This document shows, one piece after another, positions 13,893 to 40,352 of a DNA stretch of 64,000 nt. Both the position numbers and the translations under genes were made by a program. The stretch's first letter is position 1. Each line of letters opens with the position of its first letter. The notes under the pieces are model-generated. The model was not told where the DNA came from. It saw only the letters and a program-made list of their open reading frames with translations, and did not search any database. Source of the DNA: a virus. The DNA lies in IMG/VR virus record IMGVR_UViG_3300036770_005754, positions 7,472-71,471 of that record. The stretch is one strand, 5' to 3'.

Positions 13893-13904
13893 TCGTAAAC
13901 AACG

Positions 13905-14171: not shown

Positions 14172-14183
14172 GGAGAACTTCCA

Positions 14184-14657: not shown

Positions 14658-14710
14658 TTAGTGTGACCAAGGACTGGTGATTACTGCTAAATACCGATGA
14701 AAGGAAACAG

Positions 14711-15405: not shown

Positions 15406-16872
15406 ATGGAACTCTACCAAACACTAACTAGAACCATCACCGAAGAAATCGACTATACTAATACACCCCCAGAAATAGTGGATAGGTTGAGACCACTCAA
15501 ATCACACGAACAAGAATGGGGAATCAGAGAATACCACAACGGAGAAAACATCGACAATATCCTAGACTCAATAGAAATCTACAACAACAACATAAGAGAT
15601 AACAGATACAACAGCATACTAGTCAGACACAACCGTAACTACAAGAACATATTCAACTACACCTCCAGAATCATCCACAGCGCCCTCACAGAATTTGAAG
15701 AACTGAGGGCCCCAAAACCCAGCAACCGCAAACTCCAAGAATCCCACAGAAACTGGAGCATTGAAGAACCGCCATACTCGGAAATACTAGTTGATAACAA
15801 CAGATTAAGAATAGTAAAAGTACAAAGGGCCGATGATACTGGGAAAGCGGCTAAAATAGCCAGCGATATGAGTCACAAATCAGAATGGTGTACGGTTAAT
15901 GTTGGAAAAGCTGATGACTACCTTAGTAGGGGTAACCTGTACTTCATTCTACTTGATGGTGAGAAGTATTTATATCATGCCGAAGCCCAACAGTTAATGG
16001 ATTTTGGGAATAGGCCTTTTAGGATTTCTGAGGAGGTTTATTATTTACTGTCAGATTATATTCCTGATATTGGTTTATTCATGGAGGATGAGCATAGCGA
16101 GATTTATAAGAATGCCGCTATAAAGTATCCTCTGGTTGCTTGTATGTATGCTCGTGACGTTCTAAGAGGCAGGTGGCCAGAAGCAGAATCAATTATAATG
16201 AAGGACCCTTTGGTTGCTTACAATTATGCTGTTGATACCATTAAAAGTAGATGGTTTGAGGCAGAACCGGCTATAATGAAGTATCCTAAGGCTGCTTGCG
16301 TGTATGCTTATAGCGTTCTAAGAGGCAGGTGGATAGAAGCAGAGCCGATTATAATCCAAGACCCTTGGTCCGCTGCCCATTATACTCATCACGTTCTCAA
16401 ACGTAGGTGGCCTGGAGCAGAACCGATAATAATGAAAGATCCGGATTCTGCTTGTGATTATGCTATTTATGTTCTTAAACGTAGATGGCCAGAAGCAGAA
16501 CCAAACATAATGAAGAACGCTGGGGCCGCTACCAATTATGCTATTAATATTCTTGAACGCAGGTGGCTGGAAGTAGAACCAATTATAATGAAGGACCCTT
16601 GGTCCGCAAACCACTACGCTAGATATGTTCTAGAACGAAGGTGGCCTGAGGCAGAACCAATTATAATGAATGATCATTGGGCTGCCTTCTATTATGCTCG
16701 GGATGTCCTTAAACGTGAATGGCCAGAAGCAGAACCAAACATAATGAAAAACCCTGGAGGGGCCCATAGTTATGCTAAATATATTCTTAAACGCAGGTGG
16801 CCAGAAGCAGAACCAAACATAATGAAAGACCCTAACGCCGCGAAGCATTACAAAGAAGACTTCGATATATGA
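15406..16872 (+). CDS. 26-aa repeat family protein, paralog 1 (9 full repeats plus capping unit)
   Basis: ~235-aa N-terminal region shared with three paralogs (contains SEWCT...LYFILLDGEKY...QLMDF), then repeats of MKDPxxAxxYAxxVLxRRWPEAEPxI. Confidence 0.9.
   Translation: MELYQTLTRTITEEIDYTNTPPEIVDRLRPLKSHEQEWGIREYHNGENIDNILDSIEIYNNNIRDNRYNSILVRHNRNYKNIFNYTSRIIHSALTEFEELRAPKPSNRKLQESHRNWSIEEPPYSEILVDNNRLRIVKVQRADDTGKAAKIASDMSHKSEWCTVNVGKADDYLSRGNLYFILLDGEKYLYHAEAQQLMDFGNRPFRISEEVYYLLSDYIPDIGLFMEDEHSEIYKNAAIKYPLVACMYARDVLRGRWPEAESIIMKDPLVAYNYAVDTIKSRWFEAEPAIMKYPKAACVYAYSVLRGRWIEAEPIIIQDPWSAAHYTHHVLKRRWPGAEPIIMKDPDSACDYAIYVLKRRWPEAEPNIMKNAGAATNYAINILERRWLEVEPIIMKDPWSANHYARYVLERRWPEAEPIIMNDHWAAFYYARDVLKREWPEAEPNIMKNPGGAHSYAKYILKRRWPEAEPNIMKDPNAAKHYKEDFDI
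16120..16860 (+). repeat. Coding tandem array of ~78-nt units
   Basis: Recurrent TGGCCAGAAGCAGAACCA core at ~78-nt spacing. Confidence 0.9.
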
Positions 16873-18011
16873 AACTGTGCCAAATACTAACCAGAACCCT
16901 CACCGAAGAAATAGACTACACCAACATACCCCCAGAAATAGCAGACAGACTAAAACCACTCAAACCACACGAACAAGAATGGGGAATCAGAGAATACCAC
17001 AACGGAGAAACCATAAACAACATCCTAGATTCCATAGAAATCTACAACAATAACATAAAAGACAACAGATACAGCAGCATACTAGCCAGACACAACCCCA
17101 ACTACAAGAACATATTCAACTACACCTCCAGGATAATCCACAGCGCCCTCACAGAATTTGAAGAACTAAGGGCACCAAAACCCAGCAACCGCAAACTCCA
17201 AGAATCCCGCAAGAACTGGAGTATTGAAGAACCACCATACTCAGAAATCCTAGTCAACAATAATAGGTTAAGAGTAATAAAAGTCAAGAGAGTCGATGAT
17301 ACTGGGAAAGCTGCTAAAATAGCTAATGACATGAGCCACAAGTCAGAATGGTGCACAGTCAATGTCGAAAAAGCAGATCATTACCTTGGCAGGGATGATT
17401 TGTACTTCATTCTGCTTGATGGTGAGAAGTACTTGTGCCATATCAAGTCTAAACAACTGATGGATTTTTGGAATAGGCCTTTTAGGATTTCCGAGGAGCT
17501 TTACCATTTACTATCAGATTATGTCCCTGATATTGGTTTATTCATCAAGGACAAACATAGTGAGATTTACAAGAATATTGTTATAAAGCACCCTAAGGCT
17601 GCTTACGATTATGCTTCACGTGTTCTTGGACGTAGATGGCCCGAGGCAGAACCAACCATAATCAAGGACCCTTTTATCGCTTATAGTTATGCTCGATATG
17701 TTCTAGATCGTCGATGGCCAGAAGCAGAACCAATCATAATGAGGGACGCTAAGGCCGCTGCCTATTATGCTCATCATGTTCTAGATCGTCGCTCCGTTGC
17801 CAGGTCGAGAATCCGCAGCCGGTGGCTCGAGGCAGAACCAATCATAATGAATGACCCTTGGGCTGCCGCCTATTATGCTATTTATGTTCTAGAACGTAGG
17901 TGGCCAGAAGTAGAACCGATGATAATGAAAGACCATAATGCTGCGAAACAGTACAAGGAGTTCTTCGGCATGCCTGGATGCTGTGAGTCATGCGAACAGT
18001 GGCTTTACTAA
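16869..18011 (+). CDS. 26-aa repeat family protein, paralog 2 (4 full repeats plus capping unit)
   Basis: Same N-terminal region and repeat consensus; ATGA overlap with paralog 1. Confidence 0.9.
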   Translation: MKLCQILTRTLTEEIDYTNIPPEIADRLKPLKPHEQEWGIREYHNGETINNILDSIEIYNNNIKDNRYSSILARHNPNYKNIFNYTSRIIHSALTEFEELRAPKPSNRKLQESRKNWSIEEPPYSEILVNNNRLRVIKVKRVDDTGKAAKIANDMSHKSEWCTVNVEKADHYLGRDDLYFILLDGEKYLCHIKSKQLMDFWNRPFRISEELYHLLSDYVPDIGLFIKDKHSEIYKNIVIKHPKAAYDYASRVLGRRWPEAEPTIIKDPFIAYSYARYVLDRRWPEAEPIIMRDAKAAAYYAHHVLDRRSVARSRIRSRWLEAEPIIMNDPWAAAYYAIYVLERRWPEVEPMIMKDHNAAKQYKEFFGMPGCCESCEQWLY

Positions 18012-18059
18012 CGTATAAGACGATAGTGCAAATCAACAAAAGAAGCGATTCTGTCGACA

Positions 18060-19817
18060 TTAGCCTTGCCAACTATCACCATTATAAAACATAAGCCTAG
18101 TACCATTATACCAAAAATCACCAAATTTAGGATCTCTACCTAATAGAATTCTCAACCTTGGTAATACGTCGTTGTTGTAAGTAGTAGGGTTGTCACCTAG
18201 AGTGTCTGCGGAAACGGTCATTTTGACACAACGGTGAGCCAGAGCGCCTGTATAACCATATTTATCTATAGAAGAATTTGGCACAATCCCGACCACTGAC
18301 TCTAAGTCAATTTGATTACCTAATCCTTGGTCCTGCTCTGTGATATACCTATTAGAATCGCTAGGGTAGATAGGCACACTCAATCTTGCCGTACTACCGA
18401 CCATAGCTCTTGATTCGCCGATTGTAGGAATATATTTCGGGACTCTACTGATGCCAAAGGAACTTATTCTAGTCGAAGATTTGGAAAATTCGGTGTCGAT
18501 AGGTGATCCAACAATCGAATCAAAAGAATCAAAGAATTGATCTATATCGTTTGTAAATTTGTCCCATAAGCTTGATAAAACAACATGACCGCGTCCGAAA
18601 TGCTGGTTGAAACTAGATGATGAGCCGCCGGTAATCAACTTTAGGTTGTTAGAAGGTACTATCTCAATTATCTCGCCGTCAGTAAAACTTCTGGTTAGAT
18701 CTAAAGTCGCAAATTCAATTATTGCAGTGCTTGGAGAACCACCAACTTCTGAATCTGTTACATTGTATGTGGCGAAAAACATCCTCAATTCGTTGGTACC
18801 AGTTCCGATTCTCTCTATTCTGGAAACCCATACAGGGAAAAAGGTGCCGCTCGAATCGCCGGTAGGATTGTCTCCAGCAGGAGCAACTATGTCGAATTCT
18901 CTAAACAAACCAGCGGGAATAACTATATTATCAATTGAAGTCCTTGATGCTTTCGCATCAAAAGGATAATTGAACGATACTAGCCAAGATTGGTTGTCAC
19001 TATCTAATTGTGGTATAGCATTCCATGCACTATCTGTTAATAGACCAGTACCATGTGATAAAGATGATTCTGAAAAATCGTCTGTTACATTAGTACCACC
19101 AGGTACTGTGTCGATTATCTCGTAAATCGCAGGAAAATCATATAAACCATCAGAATTGCTGTCAGTCACATTCCCAGGAGGTGCTAGCAAATTCAGGAAA
19201 TCTCTGACAATCTCGTCGTTCGTATCAAGTGTCCTAAAAGTGATGAATCCGGTAACAGTTTCAGACTCAGTTGGACTTATGACTATAGTCTCTTCGATAG
19301 CATCAACTACCTGCAATCTCAAATACTGATAAGTCAATGCACTATCGATTTTGTAATCTGCGTAGAATATCGCCACTTCTACTGAAGAATTCTCAACGTT
19401 CCCGGTGAATATGAGTCTAAGGTCGCCTGTATACCCATTAGTCACATTATTCTCGCCCGACATCCTTTTTATCTTTGCCAATCTGAGATTCTCCCATTTC
19501 TTCGGTAGCGAAGCATGGAAATCCCATATGAACTTTGGAGGTATTTCTTCATATCCTGCATTCGAAGCGACGATCGGAGATACTAAAAATGGGAATAGGT
19601 TCTCCTTGCCGATCGCTAGTTGAAGGACATCAACTGCTTTTGCAAGGACAAGCTGTCTGACGGCTAAGTCAGCTATCGGCCTATTCAAAACTTCATAGAA
19701 TGCTGGGTCGACAGCAGTCAACCATCTAATATTCAGAGTTGGGTCTCCACCCGTGAGACTACTGAATAGCGTTCCTGGTGATTTTGTCGGGACTTTGGCT
19801 GGTGTGATAGTAGGAAT
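18060..19817 (-). CDS. Putative virion structural (tail/baseplate-type) protein; start probably at ATT 19817 rather than TTG 19721
   Basis: S/T/G-rich 553+ aa ORF among structural-type genes. Frame is open upstream of 19721; AAGGAG sits 8 nt before an in-frame ATT. Confidence 0.6.
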   Translation of the reverse strand: MPTITPAKVPTKSPGTLFSSLTGGDPTLNIRWLTAVDPAFYEVLNRPIADLAVRQLVLAKAVDVLQLAIGKENLFPFLVSPIVASNAGYEEIPPKFIWDFHASLPKKWENLRLAKIKRMSGENNVTNGYTGDLRLIFTGNVENSSVEVAIFYADYKIDSALTYQYLRLQVVDAIEETIVISPTESETVTGFITFRTLDTNDEIVRDFLNLLAPPGNVTDSNSDGLYDFPAIYEIIDTVPGGTNVTDDFSESSLSHGTGLLTDSAWNAIPQLDSDNQSWLVSFNYPFDAKASRTSIDNIVIPAGLFREFDIVAPAGDNPTGDSSGTFFPVWVSRIERIGTGTNELRMFFATYNVTDSEVGGSPSTAIIEFATLDLTRSFTDGEIIEIVPSNNLKLITGGSSSSFNQHFGRGHVVLSSLWDKFTNDIDQFFDSFDSIVGSPIDTEFSKSSTRISSFGISRVPKYIPTIGESRAMVGSTARLSVPIYPSDSNRYITEQDQGLGNQIDLESVVGIVPNSSIDKYGYTGALAHRCVKMTVSADTLGDNPTTYNNDVLPRLRILLGRDPKFGDFWYNGTRLMFYNGDSWQG

Positions 19818-19861
19818 GGCTGATGCTCCTTGTATATCTAATTAAGATAATTTTGATCTGC

Positions 19862-20776
19862 TTAAATTAGAGTAAAATCAGAAACTCCATTGCCGTCTAT
19901 CCGAATCTGACTCAAGTCCTCAATGCCTGTGATCGTAATAGTGTGTTTGCCACCAGGATTTGATGGGTTCGGGTTCGATGGATTTGGATTGTTTGGTTTA
20001 GAAGCTGGACTGCCGTACAGTCTTTGAATTCTAGGTATGTCGTCATTCTGTTGCGGTTTAGTAATACCGGCTGAATAATATGGAGCCATCAGTGCTCTCT
20101 GTGCAGAAGAATGATCTAGGCCAAGGAAGTGGCCGAATTCATGACAGGCTACATTCAGTAAGAGTATACCGCGATCTTTGGGACTCGTGACCCAGGTCTC
20201 TCCTAAATCGAATCGCATTAATAACTGGCCATTATAGTTGTTGTTCGGCGGTAAGTACGCCCAAGCCAATGTCCCGCCAGGGCCATCGAAATTACTTTGC
20301 CTACCAGAACCTGTCGAGATTATCATATTGGCTGAGTTTTTTGAAGCAACCCTAGTAATTTTAAGGTCGCAATTATCTTCCCATTGCTGATAAGCTAAGT
20401 CAAGAATATCATCTTGATCTTTTTTAGGTAATCCTGGAATATATTGTTCTACGAAATACGTCAATTGTTTCAGACCCCATCTCGAGCCCTGTGAAGCTGA
20501 TGATCTCACATAGTCTGGACACCCACACCTCGGCCACCTCATGGCTCTCACAGTCTGCTCATCCAGCTTTCCAGTCTGTGGTAAACTAAACATCTCTTGA
20601 AATTTCAGAATTGATTGTGATATATCAGCATGTAACATGCTCTTCTTCTTATCGCTGATATAATAATAATCCAGATACTGGATCGCAAAATTGCTGTCAG
20701 AATCGCTGATATTGTTGTCGCCTGCAACTTGCTTGACAAGAGTATTGGTTACTCTCGCAATCAACTGGTCACTCAT
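19862..20776 (-). CDS. Matrixin/MMP-like zinc metalloprotease (peptidase M10) with PG-binding-like prodomain and cysteine switch
   Basis: ILKFQEMFSLPQTGKLDEQT; PRCGCPD; HEFGHFLGLDH; ALMAPYY Met-turn; PNNPNPSNPNPSNP linker. Confidence 0.92.
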   Translation of the reverse strand: MSDQLIARVTNTLVKQVAGDNNISDSDSNFAIQYLDYYYISDKKKSMLHADISQSILKFQEMFSLPQTGKLDEQTVRAMRWPRCGCPDYVRSSASQGSRWGLKQLTYFVEQYIPGLPKKDQDDILDLAYQQWEDNCDLKITRVASKNSANMIISTGSGRQSNFDGPGGTLAWAYLPPNNNYNGQLLMRFDLGETWVTSPKDRGILLLNVACHEFGHFLGLDHSSAQRALMAPYYSAGITKPQQNDDIPRIQRLYGSPASKPNNPNPSNPNPSNPGGKHTITITGIEDLSQIRIDGNGVSDFTLI

Positions 20777-21155
20777 TGCTGTCTCCGATATTTGTTAGCA
20801 CTACAGAACCGTTTTGATCTATCCTGAATGACCAATCTACCACACCAAGATAAGTTTTCGTGACTGTGGCTGTGGCTGCGGCTGTTTTGGACTTCTGAGT
20901 ATTCATAGGTATATACCCACCAGTATTATCGGCGAACCTGAATTGTCGCCATCTTACTGGTGGTAGACTGTTATCCCTGACGCCGCGTAATGGTAGATCA
21001 AGGGGGTCGACACCATGATCCGAGCCAGAGCCATGATTAATCGCCTGCAATGACACTATCCTGTTTACGACCATCGGTGTGTTGAGGTGACTTTTCACAT
21101 AGTCACCAGAGATAGCCGTATTGATTGTCATCATCAATATCAAGAAATATTTCAT
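20769..21155 (-). CDS. Small hypothetical protein with N-terminal hydrophobic/signal-like segment
   Basis: MKYFLILMMTINTAISG N-terminus. Confidence 0.55.
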   Translation of the reverse strand: MKYFLILMMTINTAISGDYVKSHLNTPMVVNRIVSLQAINHGSGSDHGVDPLDLPLRGVRDNSLPPVRWRQFRFADNTGGYIPMNTQKSKTAAATATVTKTYLGVVDWSFRIDQNGSVVLTNIGDSNE

Positions 21156-21156
21156 A

Positions 21157-21486
21157 TCATTTTGCCCAGTGGTTGGTTATTTTAGATTTGCGAATCACGA
21201 CGTTGTTCGAGATGAATGGACTAGGTTGATTAATTGCCGCATATTCTGAAAATGGACTCTTGTAGCTATCGCCAATTTGCGGCAGTGGGCCCATATTTTG
21301 ATTGAAATTGAATGGTCTAGTCTTTAATGGTGCGACAGCCATAGGTGGCCTATCTATTTTAAGAGGCTTCAAATTCACCGGCATTATTAGATTATTGATA
21401 ACATTCGTATTGTTGACGACTTTAACCTCATGGTCTCCAGCTACCGCTGCTGCAGCCATGATCATAAATATTAATATAGTTTTCAT
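21157..21486 (-). CDS. Small hypothetical protein with signal-peptide-like N-terminus
   Basis: MKTILIFMIMAAAAVAG; start placed at the second ATG, after GAGGA. Confidence 0.55.
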   Translation of the reverse strand: MKTILIFMIMAAAAVAGDHEVKVVNNTNVINNLIMPVNLKPLKIDRPPMAVAPLKTRPFNFNQNMGPLPQIGDSYKSPFSEYAAINQPSPFISNNVVIRKSKITNHWAK

Positions 21487-21497
21487 TTTAAACATCC

Positions 21498-22565
21498 TCA
21501 ATTAAAGATTATCCGCCACCTGACGACGATTTCGAAGTCCTCTGATTTTTTGACAGGCGTTTTTAGAATCCTATGTGAAAAAATCTTAAAACCGTCTCTA
21601 AGAATGCCGATTGGACCAACCAACGGAATATTATCACCATCAACTGGGACTCTGTCGACGACAATATCATGCCCGCCTGGTGCTTTGTTTATCACTAGAT
21701 AATATGGGTTTAATTGGTTCAATGTATCATCATCAGAGATCGTCACGTCTCTTGCAACAATCTTTATTTGGTCGCCTTCTTTGATCAAGTCTGGGTTCAT
21801 GACTGACGGGTCTAAGGAAACTGTGGTTGCACCACTGGCGGATGCTGGTAAAGACACGCCATTCTCACCAGTCATAAATATTTCACGGGGTGGGCACTCA
21901 CAACTGCCGACATTTCCGATCTCAGCCGCACCAACCAGTGCTACCTCCGTTATTGTAAAGAAGTCTCCTGACGTTATGCCGAAACCATTGTATTCACTTT
22001 TGAGTAATGTCGTCTCGAAGACTACTATGTTGTTGACAGCTCTGATATCATCCTGCAATAGGGGCGTACCAGAAGGCTGGTAACTGCTCTCAAAGAATAT
22101 TCTCTCTATTCTTTTGAGAGGTCTAGTTGGCTCTGAGATAGGTATCGGATTTATGAGATCTCCACCATATTCGGCACCCACACCTAATGTAACAGGAATT
22201 GAACCACCACTTATGGAGTCGACTATATAAAATCTTTCGTCAGTCGAGTCTAACGGATTACCATCTTCTCCGAACGAAGCACCAAACACGATGTATTTGG
22301 CAGCGAACTCGTCTATATCAATATCGTGCGTTACCCAATCGCCTGCACCACCATTGGCATTTATGTCCCAAACTTTGTGGTATGGTAGCCTATGTGAGAT
22401 CATTTCTTTGGCGAAAATTTTGATAATATTAGGTTGATATATTGTGTTTATTATTCTGCCATGTTTGTCTTTTATTATGAATTCAATTTCACCTTTATAG
22501 GTACGTATCTTGTGCCCATTTGCATCTGAGCCAAGCCCATATTGATCTTGCAATTTTGCTTTCAT
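21498..22565 (-). CDS. Putative virion structural (tail/baseplate) protein
   Basis: GEIEFIIKDKHG...NII, ITEVALVG and C-terminal FSHRILKTPVKKSEDFEIVVRWRI resemble phage tail-collar/baseplate-type proteins. Confidence 0.55.
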   Translation of the reverse strand: MKAKLQDQYGLGSDANGHKIRTYKGEIEFIIKDKHGRIINTIYQPNIIKIFAKEMISHRLPYHKVWDINANGGAGDWVTHDIDIDEFAAKYIVFGASFGEDGNPLDSTDERFYIVDSISGGSIPVTLGVGAEYGGDLINPIPISEPTRPLKRIERIFFESSYQPSGTPLLQDDIRAVNNIVVFETTLLKSEYNGFGITSGDFFTITEVALVGAAEIGNVGSCECPPREIFMTGENGVSLPASASGATTVSLDPSVMNPDLIKEGDQIKIVARDVTISDDDTLNQLNPYYLVINKAPGGHDIVVDRVPVDGDNIPLVGPIGILRDGFKIFSHRILKTPVKKSEDFEIVVRWRIIFN

Positions 22566-22572
22566 TGTTTTC

Positions 22573-23199
22573 TCATAATACTAAAGACGGGGTGTGATAT
22601 GAATTATCTGGGATTCTTCGCAATACTACTGTGAATTCATCTCCATTGTCAAGAAGAATCCCACTTAATAGAATCGTTGAATTCCCTATTATCGTGTAGC
22701 TTCTGGGGTCTACCAGCAAACCATTAACATGTAAGAAGCATCTTGTCTCATCGTTAACAAATTGCCTCAAAGCTTCTGGTATTGGTATGCTATTTATACC
22801 ATTGTTAGCACAACTTCCGCTGAACACAACATCCTGAGTGAATGATTCGATCGTCGCCTTTACAGAATTATACCATTCTGATAGTGTTATGTGTAGACCA
22901 TTCGTGTCAGGTTCTCCCAATGGTATTACTTCAGAATAATTCAACCATTGATTGTCTTTACGGATTTTTAGAGTTTGTGAATTTAGATCGAACCATGGTG
23001 TACCGTCTCTGTATTCTGTTGGTTCGTCATATGATGATTGTTGTGATAATAACGCGATCACAACCATTCTCATGTGATCATATCTTGCCTGAGATTGTGG
23101 CATTGGATAATTATCATGATCCTGGCTTGCCAAACCTACTTCTGTCTGAAAGTTAATCAGAGCAGAAGAGAATCTCATCCTATTGTCCGGTATCGTCAT
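22573..23199 (-). CDS. Putative virion structural protein
   Basis: C-terminal LHVNGLLVDPRSYTIIGNSTI beta-rich module; GGAGG and TATAAATA upstream. Confidence 0.5.
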   Translation of the reverse strand: MTIPDNRMRFSSALINFQTEVGLASQDHDNYPMPQSQARYDHMRMVVIALLSQQSSYDEPTEYRDGTPWFDLNSQTLKIRKDNQWLNYSEVIPLGEPDTNGLHITLSEWYNSVKATIESFTQDVVFSGSCANNGINSIPIPEALRQFVNDETRCFLHVNGLLVDPRSYTIIGNSTILLSGILLDNGDEFTVVLRRIPDNSYHTPSLVL

Positions 23200-23211
23200 A
23201 TAGCCCCTCCA

Positions 23212-23219
23212 TATTTATA
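23212..23219 (-). promoter_or_regulatory. T4-type late promoter-like TATAAATA
   Basis: Exact TATAAATA on the minus strand, 13 nt upstream of the ATG at 23199, followed by GGAGG. Confidence 0.4.
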
Positions 23220-23224
23220 TACTA

Positions 23225-24256
23225 TTATCGTCTAGCGATCGGAGCTGTGCGTGGTGCTGGTGCAGTCTTTGGTATCGCTGCTTCTTCAGCTGCCTCCTCT
23301 TCAGTGCTATCGACACCCATCTGTGCTGCTATCTCGCTTTCTTCGTCCTTCGGCTGGACAGCTCTAGCAATATCGCCTATGGCCTTTCTGCGATCTTGTA
23401 TTTCTTGTTCTTTCTGTTCAAATGCTCCTGGTGCGTCTCCGGATGCAAAGTCCACCATATGCTTTAATTGCTCTTCGAAATCTCCGGGATTTACCAAAGT
23501 GTCATAATTAATACGTGCGATCGGCTGGTCTGCTCCAGTCACAGCGTTTTTGATAGTTAAAATTATCGATTGTCCATCGTCTGATTTTTTCCAGGATATG
23601 CCCTGTTGCGTCAGTCTATCTTGTAATGGACCCATGCCCATTTTCTCACCAAGAACTCTCAACGCTCTAGCAAAAGTTCTGAAAAGATCATCTGGCTGAT
23701 CACCAGTCGGTGTGGCCAATCCTTCTAAAGCTTCGTTCAAGTAATTTTGGAAAACACGCCTTTCTGGTGATTCGTATCTTAGTTCCGTTCCGCGATTAGC
23801 ACCTTTGGCAGCCCCTTTTGGATAATCATGGTTCTTCCTCTTTCTTCTGACCATTTTAGATGCTGATTCTAAAAAATCAATAATTCTAATAGGCTCTGAG
23901 ACCTGTTTTGGTTTAGCCACAGCTTTGAAAGCTTCATCTAGCTTATTAATAAAAGTCATTTCCAATTCTCCACCGGCTTCTGATGTCATTTCGATCATTT
24001 TTGATTCTGAGACTGCTTCTAAAGAAAACGTCAGAATCGTACCACCGCGAACTCTTTTGATGTCGACGTGGATTTTGTTCTCCACTACTTCTTCTTCAAT
24101 GAATGACAGTAGTGCATTTGCGGCTTCCGGACTTTTCTTGAATAACATTATTCCCTGAATATCTGCTTCGTCACATACGATGTCATAGGGTATGCCATTT
24201 ACAGCAGACCACTGTGATATCATCTTACAAATCATGCTCAGGCGTGGGTCTACCAT
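23225..24256 (-). CDS. Hypothetical protein (acidic, possibly head-associated)
   Basis: 343-aa ORF containing VSES, LDEA, FLES, LNEA. Confidence 0.7.
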   Translation of the reverse strand: MVDPRLSMICKMISQWSAVNGIPYDIVCDEADIQGIMLFKKSPEAANALLSFIEEEVVENKIHVDIKRVRGGTILTFSLEAVSESKMIEMTSEAGGELEMTFINKLDEAFKAVAKPKQVSEPIRIIDFLESASKMVRRKRKNHDYPKGAAKGANRGTELRYESPERRVFQNYLNEALEGLATPTGDQPDDLFRTFARALRVLGEKMGMGPLQDRLTQQGISWKKSDDGQSIILTIKNAVTGADQPIARINYDTLVNPGDFEEQLKHMVDFASGDAPGAFEQKEQEIQDRRKAIGDIARAVQPKDEESEIAAQMGVDSTEEEAAEEAAIPKTAPAPRTAPIARR

Positions 24257-24771
24257 TCTGGTTTTTCACAAAATTCGACTAATTCACATAAAGTGACGCT
24301 CTTGCCATCTATCAACGTAATACCGGTCCCTATGATATCTTCATTTAATGATTTATAAAACATTCTGAAATAGTCTATTACAGCCGAAGATAGATCACCA
24401 ATATCCGGCACTAAGATCGTGTGTCGACGATATGTTCTCTTGAACCTACCAGAAAATTTATCATCGTTTGAGTCTACAGACCACAGTCCCCTTGATACAT
24501 CAGGGTTCAAAATTAGCGTTTTAGTTTTGTACCCAATTTTACAACCATCGGCAGTCACCGATATATTCAAACTAGGATTCTCTCTTCTCACTATTGTCGC
24601 TAAATTAGTGTTTATTCTTCTAGATGTTAATGCCAATTTCCTCTTCAAATCAGATAAATGCTGCTTGACACGATCAATTTGACCTACTAGATCAGTAGCT
24701 ACATCCAGCAAATCACCGCACTGAGTTGCTTGCTCTTCAAGTATCAGAGACAATCGATTTGAAAAACTCAT
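24250..24771 (-). CDS. Hypothetical protein
   Basis: 173-aa ORF coupled to its neighbours. Confidence 0.7.
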   Translation of the reverse strand: MSFSNRLSLILEEQATQCGDLLDVATDLVGQIDRVKQHLSDLKRKLALTSRRINTNLATIVRRENPSLNISVTADGCKIGYKTKTLILNPDVSRGLWSVDSNDDKFSGRFKRTYRRHTILVPDIGDLSSAVIDYFRMFYKSLNEDIIGTGITLIDGKSVTLCELVEFCEKPEW

Positions 24772-25148: not shown

Positions 25149-25300
25149 GGCTACTTCTTTCTAAAAAAATTCTTAATTATTTTTTCCTATTTGGCCAATC
25201 GTTTAAGTCTCTCTAAGGCTGATTCAAAGTGCATTATGTTACATAGCTCTCACCTGATAAATACTTATCTAAGAATCTTCACACTAATCAGGAGGTTATA

Positions 25301-26557: not shown

Positions 26558-26646
26558 TGATATCATTGGTCATAGCGATATCGGTAGTACCGATAATATT
26601 GTGGTACATCCTTGAAGAACGCTCAGACACTAAAAGATGGAAGTAA
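26554..26646 (+). CDS. 30-aa single-TM micro-protein (not in ORF track)
   Basis: MMISLVIAISVVPIILWYILEERSDTKRWK; ATGA overlap upstream and TAAAATG coupling to the next gene. Confidence 0.5.
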   Translation: MMISLVIAISVVPIILWYILEERSDTKRWK

Positions 26647-26647
26647 A

Positions 26648-27331
26648 ATGGAAGACGAATATCCATTGGTATCTGCGATAATGCTTGCCGGAAAATCGAA
26701 CATAACAGACATATTATGCGCTATACAATGTTTCAACAAACAATCCTACCCGTATAAAGAACTAATTATAATTAATAATGCTAAGACCCAATTTGAAGCT
26801 AGCTCTCTAGAATTGGATGCCAACGAAAATGTATTCATAATCGACACACCAACAGAACTAACGGCTGGGATGGCTAGGAATTATGGTATAAAGGCAGCGA
26901 GCGGTAGAATATTGGCGCAGTTCGATTCTGATTATTGGCATTCACCAGATAGACTCAGCACACAAATTTCAGCAATGGTCAATAATGAATCGCATATATG
27001 TATGCTAAGCGATGCATTGTCATTCAGTTACCTATCTGGTATCGCAACCATCATTAGTAATGAGAAATCCGCGATACTCGGCACCATGGTATACATAAGA
27101 CCACAAAATATAGACTACCCACCATATAATAAATACGAAGAATTCGGAATACTCAGCAAAATGATAGAATCGGGCATGAAGCCTATTTCCATAAACAATC
27201 CAGATCTATGTTGTAAGTTGATTACGTCTGACGCACATGAGGACATGATCAACAATGGGTTGAATGATGATCAATTAAGTCTAGTGAAGTCGATTGTCGA
27301 AGAGCGATCGATGATATCCGCCAATATGTGA
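26648..27331 (+). CDS. Glycosyltransferase family 2
   Basis: LVSAIM, QSYPYKELIIINN, ARNYGIKAASG, AQFDSDYW...RLSTQ; start reassigned to MEDEYP. Confidence 0.8.
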   Translation: MEDEYPLVSAIMLAGKSNITDILCAIQCFNKQSYPYKELIIINNAKTQFEASSLELDANENVFIIDTPTELTAGMARNYGIKAASGRILAQFDSDYWHSPDRLSTQISAMVNNESHICMLSDALSFSYLSGIATIISNEKSAILGTMVYIRPQNIDYPPYNKYEEFGILSKMIESGMKPISINNPDLCCKLITSDAHEDMINNGLNDDQLSLVKSIVEERSMISANM

Positions 27332-27370
27332 TATTAGGCGGCAGCTCAAAAATATTCGTAGGAGGTATAT

Positions 27371-29560
27371 ATGCGCAGTGTCATTTCGAAGCTCAATAGA
27401 AGACTACGACCAATATTTGAATCATCCGCAGAACCAGTAGAGCATATATGGTGGAAGAGCCCTGACTCACCAGATTATAACAGGCAATTGGCAGAAGATG
27501 CTTTATATCATACAATAGGCCCCCTTACAAATAACCCCAGATGGGCATCAGAATGGACCAGCAAGAGTGAGCCTGTGCCAGGATTCGTTGGTGGTGGCCC
27601 AGCACCAAGATGGGACGAACATGAAATAACAATGGCTATGGCTGGTGATCAGTCTTACCAAAGAGGGCCAATGAGCCCAAAAGGTTCTCCAATATATAGA
27701 TTAGCTATGAAAACAGCTAGAAAATTTGGTAGAGAAAATGACCAAGATTTAATAGCTGACTTCTATGCTAATGGTCTCCTGAGACTCGCCACCTTAATGA
27801 AGCCAGGATATGACCAATCGAGAAGTACATTTATACAATATGCACTCCCATATATCAGAAGTGCGATGGATACAGGCACTGGTAAGACTCTTGCAACACA
27901 AGCAGCAGCTGGTTTCAGAAGCGAAGGTGGGATAGTGGGCTTCAAAGGTCTTCTCGACTATAATATCACACAAGGAGACCCTGAAAGAATCCGTAAAATC
28001 GCAACGCAAATAAAAGGGAAATACAGAGAGCAGAGGAGTCATGACAAAGACAAAGGCAACCCATTAGGACCATATTCAAAGGCTTTTTGGGAACTAGCTA
28101 ACGCATATGCAGACGCACTTGAATCCGATAATGAAGACCGCATCGAGGCAATACGTCATCAAATAGGCCAAAAGATAGAGGAAATAGAATCAGAGTCGAC
28201 TGTCCTTGGTGCACGACTTGGCATAGGCCAAGCTATGACGGATCCGACTAGAAAAACGCCAATGAAGATTGTGAGCGTAGATGCTCCTATGGGTGACGAC
28301 GAAGGTTCGTCCACAATCGCTGGATCACTAGAATCCAAAAAAGAAGATGAAGCGGAATGGATAACACCGCAAGTAATCAATAAAGTGCTTATGATGGCAT
28401 TGGACGAAGAATGGATGAAATACACTGCTATCAAAATGAAGTCCGACAAAAAACTTGCAGCATTCGCAGTAGAGAAATTGGGGCTAACAGAAGTAATTAA
28501 CGAACCACTGACAGCCAATGAGTTTAGGTTCGTCATCAGAACCCTGGGCACGATCGCGTCAGAGTATCCCGGAAAAGGCGTGGTCAGAAAGAATATCAAT
28601 ATGCCCAGGAACTCCAAAGGGTGGTGGAAGCCTGGTGAAGATCCTGAAATAGAACCATTTTCATACGTGAAAAAAGGTACCAATGAGAGAATACAAAAAA
28701 TGTGGAAATCAAGATGGGCCACAGGACGTAAAGATCCAGGGCAAGATCCGAATGAGCCATATAAGAAAATGAATAACACGGAAATAATGAGAGAGATGTT
28801 CGCAGAAAATGACGAGTTCAGAAGACTAGCAATACGAACTGCTACGCCAGTGAAAAAAGATCAGATCGCCGAAAAGTATGCTGAATACTTCGGCAGACTA
28901 TTAGACACGAGAAACCCTGAGGAACTGGCTAAAATTCGTTCTGAATATATGGCGGTATACCCTGAAAACGATCGATATTATCACTACATCAATACTAACA
29001 TACCAAGATACATAGCGGCCCTAAAGAAAAGGGACAATAAAACAATAGAGAGATATAATAAAGAATTCAGGACTAAATTTGATATGAACTCTGGAGAAGT
29101 CACTAGAGTGACGGGTTTCAGTCCCGTAACAATCGGCGAGCAGTTAAACAGAGCTTTAAATAAATTAAAAATAATAGTATTCTCAGAACGCAGAGATCTT
29201 GAAGACCCACAAGTAATCAAACCATCAAAATTGAAAGCCAGCGAACCAGAAGGTCCAGCGCTAGCTGAAGAATTACACAGATCACATCCAATTGACAGAG
29301 AATTAATCATAGAAGCTTGTGAATGGATGTGCTCAAAAATCGAATCAGTATTAAATGAGAAATCACCGCCGGGGTGGAAGAAGACAGTCGAACATATGAA
29401 AGAAAAGGGGATGACTGAAAAAGAAGCGTTCTCAAGAGCTTGGGCCACACATAAGAAGGGTGGGTCGAGGCCCGACAGAAGAAAGAAAAATAAATACTAT
29501 GTTGAAAGTTCAATGAAGCCAATTGATTCAATATCGGATGACATATATGAAATTGAATGA
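27371..29560 (+). CDS. Highly divergent, insertion-rich sigma70-like protein
   Basis: Region 2-like TARKF...DLIAD...NGLLRL...GYDQSRSTFIQYALPYIRSAM; region 3.2-like IVSVDAPMGDDEGSSTI; region 4-like LTANEFRFVIRTLG, MNNTEI, TIGEQLNRALNKLK. Confidence 0.55.
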   Translation: MRSVISKLNRRLRPIFESSAEPVEHIWWKSPDSPDYNRQLAEDALYHTIGPLTNNPRWASEWTSKSEPVPGFVGGGPAPRWDEHEITMAMAGDQSYQRGPMSPKGSPIYRLAMKTARKFGRENDQDLIADFYANGLLRLATLMKPGYDQSRSTFIQYALPYIRSAMDTGTGKTLATQAAAGFRSEGGIVGFKGLLDYNITQGDPERIRKIATQIKGKYREQRSHDKDKGNPLGPYSKAFWELANAYADALESDNEDRIEAIRHQIGQKIEEIESESTVLGARLGIGQAMTDPTRKTPMKIVSVDAPMGDDEGSSTIAGSLESKKEDEAEWITPQVINKVLMMALDEEWMKYTAIKMKSDKKLAAFAVEKLGLTEVINEPLTANEFRFVIRTLGTIASEYPGKGVVRKNINMPRNSKGWWKPGEDPEIEPFSYVKKGTNERIQKMWKSRWATGRKDPGQDPNEPYKKMNNTEIMREMFAENDEFRRLAIRTATPVKKDQIAEKYAEYFGRLLDTRNPEELAKIRSEYMAVYPENDRYYHYINTNIPRYIAALKKRDNKTIERYNKEFRTKFDMNSGEVTRVTGFSPVTIGEQLNRALNKLKIIVFSERRDLEDPQVIKPSKLKASEPEGPALAEELHRSHPIDRELIIEACEWMCSKIESVLNEKSPPGWKKTVEHMKEKGMTEKEAFSRAWATHKKGGSRPDRRKKNKYYVESSMKPIDSISDDIYEIE

Positions 29561-30782
29561 TGCAGTTACAGCATCTGTGATGGAGTCAAACCTCTTCACG
29601 ATAAATGAAGAAGACGAAGGACCACGATGGCAATTTAATTACAACGGTAAAAAAGTAACGGACTTCAACCCAGACATACTACTACTGGGGGCTTATAAAC
29701 ATCCGACTACAGGTAACAATCTCATAGGCGGTATAAATCTGAACTACATATCGCCTAAACAAAGAGACCAAATAGCTTACGCACTACCGCAAATAATAAA
29801 TGCTGAGAACCTACTAGAAAGGTACTGGATCGGAAGAAGTCTACTCCCAGAAATATTTAAAAATTATTACAGAACATATAATCCAAAATATATCAGAGGA
29901 GTTAAAAAGGACGTCATGTATCCGAAGTACGGATACCTAAAATCTGCACAAAACTGGGCAAAAAAGAAGATAGGCAGTATATTTAAATCCAAAGAACAAA
30001 GGTCGAAAGAACTAGAACCGAAGTATCGTGAAGACCTGGCTGCCATGTCAGATAAACTGGATCAAGTGGTATCACAATTATCACAAGATCAAGAGACGAA
30101 CACGCCAGAAGTGCAAGCAGCAATGAGAGCTGCAAAAGATTTCCAACGCCAAAAATCAGTGCGAGAAATAGGACGCCAAGAAATAGAACCACTGAGAACA
30201 GCACGACGAGATCTAGAAGCAGCACAACAAGAGCCAGGAATGCAACCTCCAGAGGAATATGAAAACTCTGAAGTAGGAGCCGGAATGCTTCCGAAAAAGC
30301 TGGAGAGCCGTCCTAGAAGACGACCGGCAATCAGGCCGCTTAAAAGACAAAAAGAACCAACGGAACCAACGGGAGGGCTCCCAGCGGTGTCTCCACCAAG
30401 AATGGAAAAGCCTGGCGATACAGAACAGCCGACCCTTCGACCATCGCCAAGTGAACCAAGAAATAGAAGACCAATAGGCAGATCCACACCAGAAGACGCA
30501 ATAAACAGACCGAGAAGGCCAATAGGCAGGCCATCGCCAGAAGACACGACCGAAAGACCAAAAAGGCCAATTGGTAGACCATCGCCAGAAGACACAATCG
30601 AAAAACCAAAAAGACCAATTGGTAGGTCATCGCCAGACACAATAAAAAAAAGACCGACAAAACGTCAAACACCACCAGCAGTGGATAACGAGATAGACCC
30701 AGACATAGATCTTCAAGAGTCTATTATATATTACTCTCCCGTCGCAGGTCATTACATAATAGAGCATTTCGAATTATCATGA
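29547..30782 (+). CDS. T4 gp2 (DNA end protector)-like N-terminal domain plus Pro/Arg-rich repeat tail
   Basis: PDILLLG...IGGINLNYISPKQR and YRTYNPKYIRG resemble the gp2 GLNLHYL motif; start reassigned to MKLNDAV. Confidence 0.45.
   Translation: MKLNDAVTASVMESNLFTINEEDEGPRWQFNYNGKKVTDFNPDILLLGAYKHPTTGNNLIGGINLNYISPKQRDQIAYALPQIINAENLLERYWIGRSLLPEIFKNYYRTYNPKYIRGVKKDVMYPKYGYLKSAQNWAKKKIGSIFKSKEQRSKELEPKYREDLAAMSDKLDQVVSQLSQDQETNTPEVQAAMRAAKDFQRQKSVREIGRQEIEPLRTARRDLEAAQQEPGMQPPEEYENSEVGAGMLPKKLESRPRRRPAIRPLKRQKEPTEPTGGLPAVSPPRMEKPGDTEQPTLRPSPSEPRNRRPIGRSTPEDAINRPRRPIGRPSPEDTTERPKRPIGRPSPEDTIEKPKRPIGRSSPDTIKKRPTKRQTPPAVDNEIDPDIDLQESIIYYSPVAGHYIIEHFELS
30468..30656 (+). repeat. Four ~48-nt coding repeats (RPIGRPSPEDTxERPK)
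   Basis: AGACCAATAGGCAG / AGGCCAATAGGCAG / AGGCCAATTGGTAG / AGACCAATTGGTAG at 48-nt spacing. Confidence 0.85.
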
Positions 30783-31121
30783 ATCAACACTACCAATAAA
30801 TATCTTTAAAGTAAAATGCTTAGGCTTACTGTATGAAACTTTTATAGGTATGTGCGACATACCATACTCATCAGTTGTTCCGGTATAAATAATATCACGC
30901 TCATGAAGCTCCCAGCGAAATCTATTAGCAGCGTCGCCACGATACTTTACAGCCATAACGGTCTCAATACCTAGCGTACCACCGACAGGTGTCGGCTGCT
31001 TCATCCCATTATATGGTTTAGTCCTAACTACACGTTCGATGTTCACATAAACTTCATTTTTAGCTTCATCAATTAAATCATAACCAAGATTTTGGAATCT
31101 AAATTCAACGAATTCTGTCAT
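30777..31121 (-). CDS. Hypothetical protein
   Basis: 114-aa ORF coupled to the large structural-type gene. Confidence 0.6.
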   Translation of the reverse strand: MTEFVEFRFQNLGYDLIDEAKNEVYVNIERVVRTKPYNGMKQPTPVGGTLGIETVMAVKYRGDAANRFRWELHERDIIYTGTTDEYGMSHIPIKVSYSKPKHFTLKIFIGSVDS

Positions 31122-33586
31122 GTAATCTCCAGTTGACCATAAGTGAACTCGCTGAACACAGTGGCCTGAGTGCGTATGTCGACTCTCCTAATCTTCGCAC
31201 CAGGCCACATCCTCAAACCATTCTTACCAAATTGTCTATTGGGGTTGAGAGTAATCGGGAAGTATGGTGTATCAATCGACACTGAAGTTGGCAGCGCCGC
31301 ACTCAAAGTGGGACTCGGCGGTATAAGCAAACGATTCCACCAGATCCATAATTGATCATCCTTCACCAATACTTCCAATCTGTTCCAATATTCTTCTTGT
31401 AGTCCGCCAATTTGTGCTCCACCATCGTATACCACAAAGCCACTAGGAGATGATTGTGGTTGCGTACCGACTCCAGTGAAAGTACCTGACTGAGAATAAA
31501 TTGCACTCACAGCATATCCGGGTGTTAGCCCCCTTACAAAATCATCTGAATCATCATCAAATATATCATCCTCATATGGTAAGCTCATGTCCAAAATACC
31601 CACCTTGAATTGCAATTGTGTTAAACCTGTTGCTTCGTCGAATGTAAATTCAACGCGAACGACCGTTGAATTATATTCTTGGTGAAGGAGTTCTAAAATA
31701 TCGTCGACGGAACCAGGATATTCATCATTGTTTAGAGAATCACCAGCTAGGATGATATTATCACAATTAGCAGGATAACCACTGGTTAGTTCAGTACCTG
31801 AACTCGATGGGAACATGAATTTTCGATAATAGTTGTAAATCTTGTTATGGTTCTCACCGGGCGATATTACTCTCACCGACCCGAATGGCGGCAAATCATT
31901 GAAATGTACACCACAAACTCTAATATAATTTAGGCCATTCACTTGGCCAGTGCCTATAACACGCATGTATTTGTTCTCATTCTCGTCGATCTGGGCCCTT
32001 ACAACTAAATCGATTGGAGAGAACGAAGAGTTATCTGGCCTACCTATATCCACTCTTGTTAAGGTATTGCAAAAGTTCTTTCTATGCCATAACCATACCG
32101 GTCTTTCACTGAAATCAGCAATCGCATCTTGAGATGATTGGACGACCAAGCCAGGTAGCGTATTATCAATAAAAGCACGATGCTGCTGACTAATATCAGC
32201 GTCTCCTGTCCCTGCTGTCGAAGCTATATCATACCACATCAATGGGTCATCATACCCAGTTAGGCCCCACACACTGCGTTCAAAATCTCTGATCGCGGTC
32301 ACTTGTGTCGAAGAATACTTATCTTCACTACCGGGTCCAGCTAAAATTTCTTCTCTAGCTATAGCGGAATCACCAAACTGAGTAAACCCGGACCATGTCC
32401 AAATATTATTAGGATTTAACGATGGTTTCTTGTTGAAGTAATGTCTAGATATTGGTTCTCCAGCTATTTCTCCTATCTTAAAGGACCATAGGTCCACCAG
32501 AGTACCAACAGGTAACAAATCTATCGTAGAATCGAGTACGATAGACTGAGAGTTAGACCCGGACTGTGGGTTTTCAGGATTGACGTATTGCCAGATATTC
32601 CTGGCCGTGAACGTGTCGCCGACAGCCCTGGCCCCATCTACATCCCACTCTCTCAAAACATATTGATTGGTGCTGAGAATAGCATCTGTATAACTGGTTA
32701 TTACAGCCATCTTCTTGGTTATTAGATGCCCCTTATACAGCAGAGAGCCAAGTAGGCCTGGTTCGGAGCTTGGGTCTAGATCGAATCGTATCTGTGAGCC
32801 ATCGTTGTCCTTCCCCATGAACCAGACCATCTCAGGAACACCGGCGGCCCCCGGGGTCATTGCCCAACCTATTTCTGTAACCATAGAATTGAGCGGATCT
32901 CTCTTCAATATCATCTCATGTTCAGCGACTCCTGGGACTATAGTATCATCGAACCTTTTGAATATGAATGCAGGGTAATTCCCTTTATTATTCAGTGTCG
33001 ATGAAGGATTGCTTGGGTTTACAATCGTCGATTCTGGGAACAAATAAACCTTCATTTCACCATATGAGTTGACGCCCGGTAGTTTCCCAGCACATGTCGG
33101 TGGCCTAACGGATGATATGTCAGTTTCATCTTGGACCCAAAATATTTGTTGGCACGTTTCGCAGGCACAATTAAGAGGTATTGGACTATCGACTGTAAAT
33201 CTAACTACATTGCCTATTCGTTCGATGCTTATAAATTCTGTGCCGGCCGCAAGTATAATATCTCCTTGCATCCAGCCACCATCGTCTGGAAATCCTGCAC
33301 CTTGGAATCCTAATACACCAAGTCTAGTTTGCAATAATGCATCAAGTTTGCATTTGTCGTCGGCGGCCATCAATCCTGGCGTATCACATGTCGCTATCGG
33401 AACTGGGTCCTCCGCGATATGTGTGACACCATGGAATGTTGGAAACAACACCTGAGATTCTTTCATGTACAATGCTCTCTGTTGAGCATCATACTGATAG
33501 CCAGTGGTTATTCCATTTGGTCCCGATACTTGAACGTACTGCCTGTCAACTAATGTCGAGGCCGATGGAACTTTTGATATGGCCAT
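31118..33586 (-). CDS. Large putative virion structural (tail/baseplate) protein
   Basis: 822-aa ORF; AGGAG upstream; GLMAADDKCKLD motif of fibre-type proteins; beta-rich. Confidence 0.55.
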   Translation of the reverse strand: MAISKVPSASTLVDRQYVQVSGPNGITTGYQYDAQQRALYMKESQVLFPTFHGVTHIAEDPVPIATCDTPGLMAADDKCKLDALLQTRLGVLGFQGAGFPDDGGWMQGDIILAAGTEFISIERIGNVVRFTVDSPIPLNCACETCQQIFWVQDETDISSVRPPTCAGKLPGVNSYGEMKVYLFPESTIVNPSNPSSTLNNKGNYPAFIFKRFDDTIVPGVAEHEMILKRDPLNSMVTEIGWAMTPGAAGVPEMVWFMGKDNDGSQIRFDLDPSSEPGLLGSLLYKGHLITKKMAVITSYTDAILSTNQYVLREWDVDGARAVGDTFTARNIWQYVNPENPQSGSNSQSIVLDSTIDLLPVGTLVDLWSFKIGEIAGEPISRHYFNKKPSLNPNNIWTWSGFTQFGDSAIAREEILAGPGSEDKYSSTQVTAIRDFERSVWGLTGYDDPLMWYDIASTAGTGDADISQQHRAFIDNTLPGLVVQSSQDAIADFSERPVWLWHRKNFCNTLTRVDIGRPDNSSFSPIDLVVRAQIDENENKYMRVIGTGQVNGLNYIRVCGVHFNDLPPFGSVRVISPGENHNKIYNYYRKFMFPSSSGTELTSGYPANCDNIILAGDSLNNDEYPGSVDDILELLHQEYNSTVVRVEFTFDEATGLTQLQFKVGILDMSLPYEDDIFDDDSDDFVRGLTPGYAVSAIYSQSGTFTGVGTQPQSSPSGFVVYDGGAQIGGLQEEYWNRLEVLVKDDQLWIWWNRLLIPPSPTLSAALPTSVSIDTPYFPITLNPNRQFGKNGLRMWPGAKIRRVDIRTQATVFSEFTYGQLEIT

Positions 33587-33656
33587 ATACTACTCCTGAT
33601 TTTATCTTCATATATTGAGGCAGTCGGTTCTGAGCAATTAACGCTGTATATTTTAT

Positions 33657-34823: not shown

Positions 34824-35968
34824 ATGTTGAAGTGTTCCTTATACTCGTATGCGGCATTAGGGTCTTTCATTATGTTTGGTTCTACTTCTGGCCATCTATG
34901 TCCAAGAACATGAATAGCATAATAGGCGGCAGCCCAAGGGTTTTTTATTATGTTTGGCTCTGCTTCTGGCCATCTACGTTTAAGAACATGAATAGCGTAT
35001 TGCGTAGCAGTCCAGGGGTCCTTCATTATGGTTGGTTCTGCTTCTGGCCATGTATTTTTAATAACCTGCCAAGCGTACCAATTAGCAATAGCACTCTTCA
35101 TTATGATCGACTCTGCTTCTGGCCACCTACGTTTAAGAACATGCTTAGCGTACTCAGAAGCAGCATAAGGGTCCTTCATTATGATCGGCTCTGCTTCTGG
35201 CCACCTACGTTTAAGAACATGCTTAGCGTACTCAGAAGCAGCATAAGGGTCCTTCATTATAGTATTCTTATAAATCTCGCTGTCGATCCACACGAATAAA
35301 CCAACATCAGGCACATAATCTGACAACAAATAATAAACCTCCTCAGAAATCATAAAAGACTCATTCCAGAAATCCATTAGTTGTTTAGATTGTATGTGAC
35401 ACAAGTACTTCTCACCATCAAGCAGAATGAAGTACAGATCATCCTTGCCAAGGTAATCATCTGCTTTCTCGACATTGACTGTGCACCATTCGGTTTTGTG
35501 ACTCATATCGCTAGCTATTTTAGCCGCTTTACCAGTATCGTCGACTCTCTGTACTTTTATTATTCTTAGTCTATTATTATTGACTAGGATTTCTGAGTAT
35601 GGTGGTTCTTCAATACTCCAGTTCCTGCGGGATTCTTGGAGTTTGCGATTGCTGGGTTTTGGTACCCTTAGTTCTTCAAATTCTGTGAGGGCACTGTGTA
35701 TTATTCTGGAGGTGTAGTTGAATATGTTTTTATAGTTGGGGTTGTGTCTGGCTAGTATGCTGCTGTATCTGTTGTCTTTTATGTTGTCATTGTATATGGC
35801 GATTGAGTCTAGGATGTTGTTGATTGTTTCTCCGTTGTGGTATTCTTTGATTCCCCATTCTTGTTCGTGTGGTTTGAGTGGTTTTAGTCTTTCCGCTATT
35901 TCTGGGGGTATGTTGGTGTAGTCGATTCCCTCGGTGAGGGTTCTGGTTAGTATTTGGCAGAGTTTCAT
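34820..35968 (-). CDS. 26-aa repeat family protein, paralog 4 (5 repeats plus capping unit)
   Basis: Same family; first two repeats nearly identical in DNA; ATGA overlap with paralog 3. Confidence 0.9.
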   Translation of the reverse strand: MKLCQILTRTLTEGIDYTNIPPEIAERLKPLKPHEQEWGIKEYHNGETINNILDSIAIYNDNIKDNRYSSILARHNPNYKNIFNYTSRIIHSALTEFEELRVPKPSNRKLQESRRNWSIEEPPYSEILVNNNRLRIIKVQRVDDTGKAAKIASDMSHKTEWCTVNVEKADDYLGKDDLYFILLDGEKYLCHIQSKQLMDFWNESFMISEEVYYLLSDYVPDVGLFVWIDSEIYKNTIMKDPYAASEYAKHVLKRRWPEAEPIIMKDPYAASEYAKHVLKRRWPEAESIIMKSAIANWYAWQVIKNTWPEAEPTIMKDPWTATQYAIHVLKRRWPEAEPNIIKNPWAAAYYAIHVLGHRWPEVEPNIMKDPNAAYEYKEHFNI

Positions 35969-39845: not shown

Positions 39846-39862
39846 TCTTTAGATCCCTGATA

Positions 39863-40309: not shown

Positions 40310-40352
40310 AATTAATGTTTGACGAGCAAAGATACTTGAAATCGGCCGAACA

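Follow-up and report, generated by a model that had tools for sequence, protein, structure and literature searches.

Proteins whose genes are reshuffled by DNA inversion are known from several mobile elements. The shufflon of plasmid R64 uses the recombinase Rci, and the invertible G and C segments of phages Mu and P1 use Gin and Cin. Common to these systems are an adjacent site-specific recombinase, short crossover sites, and promoterless C-terminal cassettes that lie behind a constant 5' segment. The inverted repeats of plastids and those of the herpesvirus long and short (L/S) segments are of another kind; they are virtually identical through constant exchange, and actively exchanging inverted repeats in general stay near-identical. 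Inverted copies of a gene also occur in birth-and-death families with interlocus gene conversion, of which the repeat-protein families of large DNA viruses and the paralog arrays of bacteria are examples. In this report, we examine four paralogous genes, here called P1 to P4 (not to be confused with phage P1), in a 64,000-nucleotide (nt) stretch of viral DNA, “the window”. It comprises bases 7472-71471 of the 176,558-bp IMG/VR record IMGVR_UViG_3300036770_005754 (G000; CheckV completeness 49%). The four genes form two pairs, in inverted orientation, around a 15.6-kb block. We find that they probably are part of a seven-member, lineage-specific birth-and-death family that has undergone some gene conversion, and that their inverted layout is incidental.

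A sequence-only reading of the window had described two forward genes, a block at 18012-33656, and two reverse genes, and the open reading frames (ORFs) confirm these coordinates and strands. P1 (15406-16872, plus strand, 488 amino acids (aa)) and P2 (16869-18011, plus strand, 380 aa) precede the 15,645-bp block, the genes of which lie on both strands; P3 (33657-34823, minus strand, 388 aa) and P4 (34820-35968, minus strand, 382 aa) follow it. Every one of the four has its own start codon and a full N-domain, and none is a promoterless cassette. The N-domain is followed by 10 repeat units in P1, five in P2 (one of them with a 10-aa insert), and six in each of P3 and P4. The long imperfect inverted repeats that had been proposed also exist: those between the two pairs (I1-I4) measure 675-1057 nt at 83-90% complementarity. 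Three further paralogs, in the order P7>P6>P5, are found on the minus strand about 62 kb beyond the window (G000 103123-106848), bringing the family to seven copies in three arrays. The copies are 83-93% identical over 684 nt, with P1 the most diverged (83-85% nucleotide identity with the other copies in the first 684 nt), and their N-domains have 82-92% protein identity to that of P3. Reading frames are intact in all seven, save at the end of P6, which has decayed. Each protein consists of a conserved N-domain of about 230 aa and 5-10 tandem helical units of 26 aa with the consensus WPEAEPIIMKDPWAAAYYAIHVLKRR. Variation among the units is concentrated at positions 13, 14, 16, 17, and 20, which are hypervariable, and correspondence of units between genes is limited to the first and last positions. 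In P4, units 1 and 2 contain an identical 21-residue stretch beginning KDPYAASEYAKHVLKRR.

The junctions between the genes are telling. At P1/P2, P4/P3, and P7/P6, the TGA of the upstream gene and the ATG of the downstream gene overlap (ATATGA), and the former gene terminates in a YK(E/K)xF(N/D)I tail. A relic of such a tail and junction, its AAGGA ribosome-binding motif included, lies directly upstream of P1 (15384-15405, plus strand). Both repeat D6 and the inverted repeat I2 start there, and the relic suggests that P1 once followed another copy. A second, frameshifted relic precedes P5 and lies behind a unique ~150-nt insert that truncates P6. These overlaps and relics bear the mark of tandem duplication and subsequent decay. 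We envisage that tandem duplication would build arrays in this overlapping form, and that such arrays would have been founded at three loci, two in one orientation and the third, as it happens, in the opposite one. Members may then gain or lose repeat units and decay at their ends, and occasional short-tract gene conversion, clearest between the tandem neighbors P3 and P4, would leave a patchwork in the N-domain. Because the record has three arrays, one inverted pair is expected by chance about half of the time. The insert that truncates P6 (G000:C1:104260-104440, between P6 and P5) contains a hairpin with a perfect 22-bp stem, and a frameshifted relic of the last repeat of P6 stands after it; blastn against the 176.5-kb record revealed no second copy of the insert.

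The locus bears a partial resemblance to each of the described systems. As in the R64 shufflon and the Mu and P1 segments, inverted repeats bracket a segment, and variant C-termini could join a constant N-terminus. Unlike in those systems, the repeats are whole, diverged genes, each copy is complete, and a recombinase is lacking. The absence of an invertase, noted earlier for the window, holds across the whole 176.5-kb record (about half of the genome), in which the serine and tyrosine recombinase profiles PF00239 and PF00589 had no match although controls matched; none is adjacent to the repeats. At the block borders, the only repeats are gene-length and imperfect, no dedicated search for 19-26-bp crossover sites having been made. 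GC and AT skew carry no signal of inversion and follow the coding strand only, and scans for promoters and terminators gave hits at chance level only. No reverse transcriptase was found; thus, a diversity-generating retroelement is not indicated. Like the flip-flop of plastids and herpesvirus L/S segments, the present case combines long inverted repeats with a general recombination gene, of the RecA family. Unlike in those genomes, the arms are 83-90% identical, the longest exact match between inverted copies is 53 nt (within the N-domain coding region), and the single contig shows one orientation. With birth-and-death families, the locus has in common tandem arrays, copies dispersed in either orientation, a variable repeat number, decaying members, and short shared tracts together with trees that are incongruent along the gene. 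It differs from the named examples in that the protein family is unannotated: searches of the paralogs against Pfam and PHROGs yielded no real family, and short matches of the repeats to DUF982 were judged spurious.

Relatives of the virus allow the two insertion sites to be compared. Matches in the record to PHROG families (clamp loader, tail-fiber-like, HNH endonucleases), together with relatives of 355-408 kb that are 44-71% identical on an 822-aa gene, identify it as a huge (jumbo) tailed phage. A eukaryotic virus, which a matrixin match had briefly suggested, was dropped after the phage hits and the huge-phage relatives; a search for capsid proteins of nucleocytoplasmic large DNA viruses was empty, as were its controls. 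Synteny was compared in three relatives (G001, G002, and G003) over six blocks, given here in window coordinates: A (12787-15335), B (18060-30782), C (30777-33586), D (35978-37651), E (38609-40606 and following), and F (43298 onwards). Their order is A, [P1P2], B, C, [P3P4], D, E, F in the window; E, B, -D, -C, -A, F in G001 and G003; and E, B, C, D, -A, F in G002, where a minus sign denotes reversal. The family is absent from the P1P2 and P3P4 loci in all three, and a profile of the N-domain had no match in four complete relatives (355-408 kb). The homologs of genes 31118 (in C) and 35978 (D), named by window position, adjoin each other on the same strand, about 90-100 nt apart, in all three relatives. 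Because this adjacency is retained, P4-P3 can be seen as 2.3 kb of DNA inserted cleanly into a conserved spacer. Block A, which lies on the plus strand at the left flank and is devoted to nucleotide metabolism (thymidylate kinase-like 13191, dUTPase-like 14130), adjoins 30777/31118 or 35978 in the relatives, but never 18060; the P1P2 site is therefore a lineage-specific A|B junction. Accordingly worded as a history, one array would have landed in the conserved 31118/35978 spacer and another at a junction unique to this phage.

Does the N-domain record exchange among the copies? The sequence-only reading had answered yes on the strength of two sets of residues, and both sets are as it described them. 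Residues 14, 26, 41, and 57 are E/D/R/E in P1 and P2 and G/E/K/A in P3 and P4, whereas residues 48 and 64 are N/R in P1 and P3 and T/K in P2 and P4. It is true that one tree needs recurrent change to accommodate both; such change is nevertheless expected at this level. The first 684 nt of the four copies hold 34 informative sites, 19 of which group P1 with P2 (12|34), six P1 with P3 (13|24), and nine P1 with P4 (14|23). A null for homoplasy was obtained from 500 simulations without recombination on the maximum-likelihood (ML) tree under the best-fit model, which predicted 30, 4.0 +/- 2.0, and 4.2 sites, respectively. The 13|24 count is thus within the homoplasy expectation (p = 0.23), and the 14|23 count is in excess of it (p = 0.024). 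Gene conversion among the copies is plausible from other signals, but the sites first cited for it fit recurrent change, and a signal of exchange appears to be absent from the P1+P3 versus P2+P4 pairing.

The clearest of these other signals lies between tandem neighbors. P3 and P4 are identical over 113 nt, at 34387-34499 in P3 (minus strand; gene nt 325-437) and 35532-35644 in P4 (minus strand). In a GENECONV-style test for the longest identical run among the four copies, this exact tract takes in 22 polymorphic sites and has a pairwise p of 0.0017 and a global p of 0.006, and we regard it as the best candidate for a conversion tract; in the same test of all seven copies, the global p is 0.071. 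Identity between P3 and P4 is 93.9% over nt 1-228, 97.7% over nt 229-443, and 87.1% over nt 444-684, while the corresponding values for P5 and P6 are 92.1%, 94.0%, and 94.2%. Over the length of the gene, the relative divergence of the two pairs therefore shifts about six-fold. Against P3 and P4, P7 has 93-95% identity over the first 443 nt and just 83-84% after them. Trees of the 5' and 3' parts of the N-domain are incongruent in ways that involve P7: in the approximately unbiased (AU) test, the ML tree of nt 444-684 is rejected by nt 1-443 (p = 0.0018), and the reverse comparison is marginal (p = 0.056). The pairwise homoplasy index (PHI) is significant for seven copies in short windows (w = 50, p = 0.0025). 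Finally, P1 and P4 have a short patch of synonymous variants in common (pairwise p = 0.012). Mosaicism of the N-domain outside the pattern first proposed is thus moderately supported, and the alignments suggest that short-tract exchange within the family is likely, most clearly between P3 and P4 and also with P7, outside the window.

Several results weigh against this reading. A first alternative to it is pure divergence with homoplasy, i.e., a single tree-like history of duplication in which a few fast, transition-prone sites changed in parallel and nothing was exchanged. Under the best-fit model, rates differ strongly among sites (alpha 0.27) and transitions are strongly favored, with 135 transitions against 40 transversions at two-state sites; these features, along with a wobble constraint that changes at about codon 150, could mimic region-specific patterns. 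For the four copies, PHI gives p = 0.05 (w = 50), 0.71 (w = 100), and 0.12 (w = 200), a runs test on the site patterns p = 0.08, and the max-chi-square test p = 0.25. Even for seven copies, PHI loses significance in longer windows (p = 0.07 for w = 100, the customary size, and p = 0.40 for w = 200). The partition boundary of the AU test, nt 443, was picked after seeing the data; because it is post hoc and coincides with the change in wobble-base usage, we rate the incongruence as moderate evidence. Further, the signal of positional orthology is thin, consisting of one synonymous patch and the tails, and the role suggested below for the proteins is read from their fold only. The simulation, as noted, reproduces the 13|24 count without recombination. 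A history free of exchange nonetheless has difficulty with the 113-nt tract between P3 and P4, with the rejection of one tree for both parts of the gene, with the short-range PHI result, and with the six-fold shift in relative divergence. We consider it unlikely, though worthy of being kept in mind.

Another possibility is that the pairs form a device. According to the sequence-only reading, RecA-type recombination between the inverted copies would, in the manner of a shufflon but without an invertase, reversibly flip the block and swap the repeat arrays. Inversion of this sort is possible in principle, given that the phage has a RecA-family recombinase gene outside the window (G000:C1:152286-153068, minus strand; PF00154, E = 5.9e-109), also present in G001 and G002, and that the inverted copies contain exact stretches of 50-53 nt. 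The inverted repeats are long, and the synonymous run of P1 and P4 could be read in its favor. Positive evidence, however, is missing. The arms fall well short of the near-identity expected of exchanging repeats, and the repeat arrays bear no sign of recent exchange: comparison of the two pairs reveals no near-identical array or unit. Only a crossover between P2 and P3 would keep the 2+2 layout with intact arrays. Such a crossover predicts an enrichment of 13|24 sites 3' of the exchange point, but three of these sites lie in each half, which is the chance level. Synteny speaks against a fixed flip as well. Flipping B and C would destroy the C|D adjacency and create none that is present in any of the three relatives, and it is the present orientation that retains the ancestral 31118|35978 neighbors. 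Together with the completeness of every copy and the want of a recombinase in the record, these observations make a reversible switch quite improbable. Equally far-fetched, if not slightly more so, is that a RecA-type recombinase flips the 15.6-kb segment in a fraction of the genomes and so makes chimeric genes from N-domains and repeat arrays. Were this true, it would provide a diversity of binders without an invertase and would rewire the transcription unit that drives genes 31118 and 30777. An artefact is the last explanation to be considered. Repeats are a known cause of assembly mis-joins, the record is a single metagenomic contig, and proteins of the family occur on one contig only in the protein collection; the copies, or the way in which they are arranged, could then stem from mis-joined repeats. 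Divergence among the copies is 7-17%, and their repeat numbers and tails are not the same, which marks them as distinct loci; both array ends enter unique flanks with homologs in the relatives; and the frames are intact save for the end of P6. An artefact on this scale is hardly credible. We therefore return to the birth-and-death family, under which the inverted layout is probably a by-product of where the arrays landed and not a switching device.

The family members also have an unusual codon usage. A or C is the last base of 93-98% of the codons in the best 40-codon window of every one of the seven paralogs, and this window falls within the first ~90 codons. Third positions are A/C-rich to about codon 150, after which A and C make up 15-25%. 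When 185 ORFs of the record are ranked by A/C-ending codons (genome mean 0.50, sd 0.10), the paralogs occupy seven of the top eight places. The switch lies near nt ~444, where the relationships among the paralogs change.

The proteins themselves have few annotated counterparts. The 26-aa, WPEAEP-type repeat matches none of the curated repeat families, and a search of the literature returned nothing on this protein family. An exhaustive profile search of 1.84 billion representatives found the N-domain in 48 clusters (18 at E <= 1e-10), and several of these clusters, composed of metagenomic proteins, have the same architecture of N-domain and RWPEAEP-repeat. Nothing was retrieved from a “phages” collection, whether by megablast with the region or by tblastn with P3 and the 822-aa gene. 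Close relatives of P3, P0007, and P0014 were not found in viral contigs, nor were those of alignment A1 in metagenome contigs; query P0008 recovered only short contigs with a single copy. Another virus record (IMGVR_UViG_3300028364_000023, L010:9155-15220) has four tandem paralogs of 578, 587, 436, and 396 aa, which contain a related N-module (SDWCTTKP motif) and a variable number of RWPxGEAAI-type repeats. Judged from these sequences, that array appears to be an independent expansion of a related design. In the relative G003, only one protein, of 371 aa, is a remote look-alike of the family. Four ORFs of G002 (405-466 aa) weakly resemble the N-part of this look-alike (G002:C1:185874-186044, 288545-288775, 289825-290007, and 322898-323068) and may constitute another lineage-specific family of paralogs.

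A model of the protein by AlphaFold2 (AF2), calculated from a 43-sequence alignment, has a mean predicted local distance difference test score (pLDDT) of 92.3; a single sequence yielded a useless model (pLDDT 39). The model has three parts: an all-alpha part (residues ~9-116), an alpha/beta part (~125-225), and a solenoid of paired helices (228-388). The alpha/beta part carries the motifs W161-C162 and Y172-L173, of which C162 and Y172 are invariant and W161 and L173 are present in at least 90% of the sequences. The C-terminal repeats are thus modeled as a HEAT/ARM-like alpha-solenoid. Its similarity to a designed helical repeat and to the HEAT domains of PP2A-A and symplekin (VIA-align Z = 7.0-7.7) is generic for helical repeats, and Foldseek of the model against the Protein Data Bank (PDB) gave nothing at E <= 1e-3. 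In the ESM Atlas and BFVD, residues ~108-235 of the N-domain resemble the N-modules of Uroviricota proteins. These look-alikes join a similar module to leucine-rich repeats (LRR), WG_beta_rep, or DUF4116 repeats, and include a PA5oct protein annotated as structural; one sequence homolog carries DUF4116 repeats (E = 1.8e-45). The phage proteins are like them in the N-module and in having an alpha-solenoid C-terminus, but unlike them in that their repeat belongs to no curated family. Because the TM-scores are below 0.5, we treat the likeness of the N-modules as a lead only. Going by the modeled fold, the most likely role is that of a diversified family of binders, with the solenoid as a putative binding scaffold.

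The block between the pairs had been called structural, a label that its contents do not sustain. Only two of its ORFs have any family match, and neither match is to a structural protein: a matrixin-like peptidase with a PG_binding_1 prodomain (19862-20776, minus strand; PF00413, E = 7e-33) and a glycosyltransferase of family 2 (GT2; 26612-27331). Sequence searches of the PDB with three ORFs of the block (822, 729, and 553 aa) were empty. The peptidase is unusual for a phage, and it has homologs of 50-59% identity in G001 and G003. Four tandem 48-nt repeats, 69-73% identical to a reference copy, are located at 30465-30656, in the 3' end of the ORF 29523-30782. At the right flank of P4, gene D (35978-37651, minus strand) is helix-turn-helix (HTH)/HNH-endonuclease-like. 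The region 12787-58448 as a whole is a rearrangement hot spot among the related 355-408-kb phages, with blocks A, C-D, and E shifting place or orientation. On a smaller scale, gene 25301 is flipped relative to its neighbors in G001 and G003, the homolog of 27371 is relocated in G002, and that of window gene 60436 is found between 25301 and 26612 in G001 and G003.

Because these findings describe ordinary genome dynamics, the locus does not merit pursuit as a new switching system. Its interest lies in the proteins. They make up an unannotated phage family that couples a conserved N-module to a hypervariable alpha-solenoid of 26-aa units, and that is present in seven copies in one huge phage. 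If the modeled fold is a guide, binder-like, lineage-specific expansions of this sort are candidates for functions in host interaction or counter-defense.

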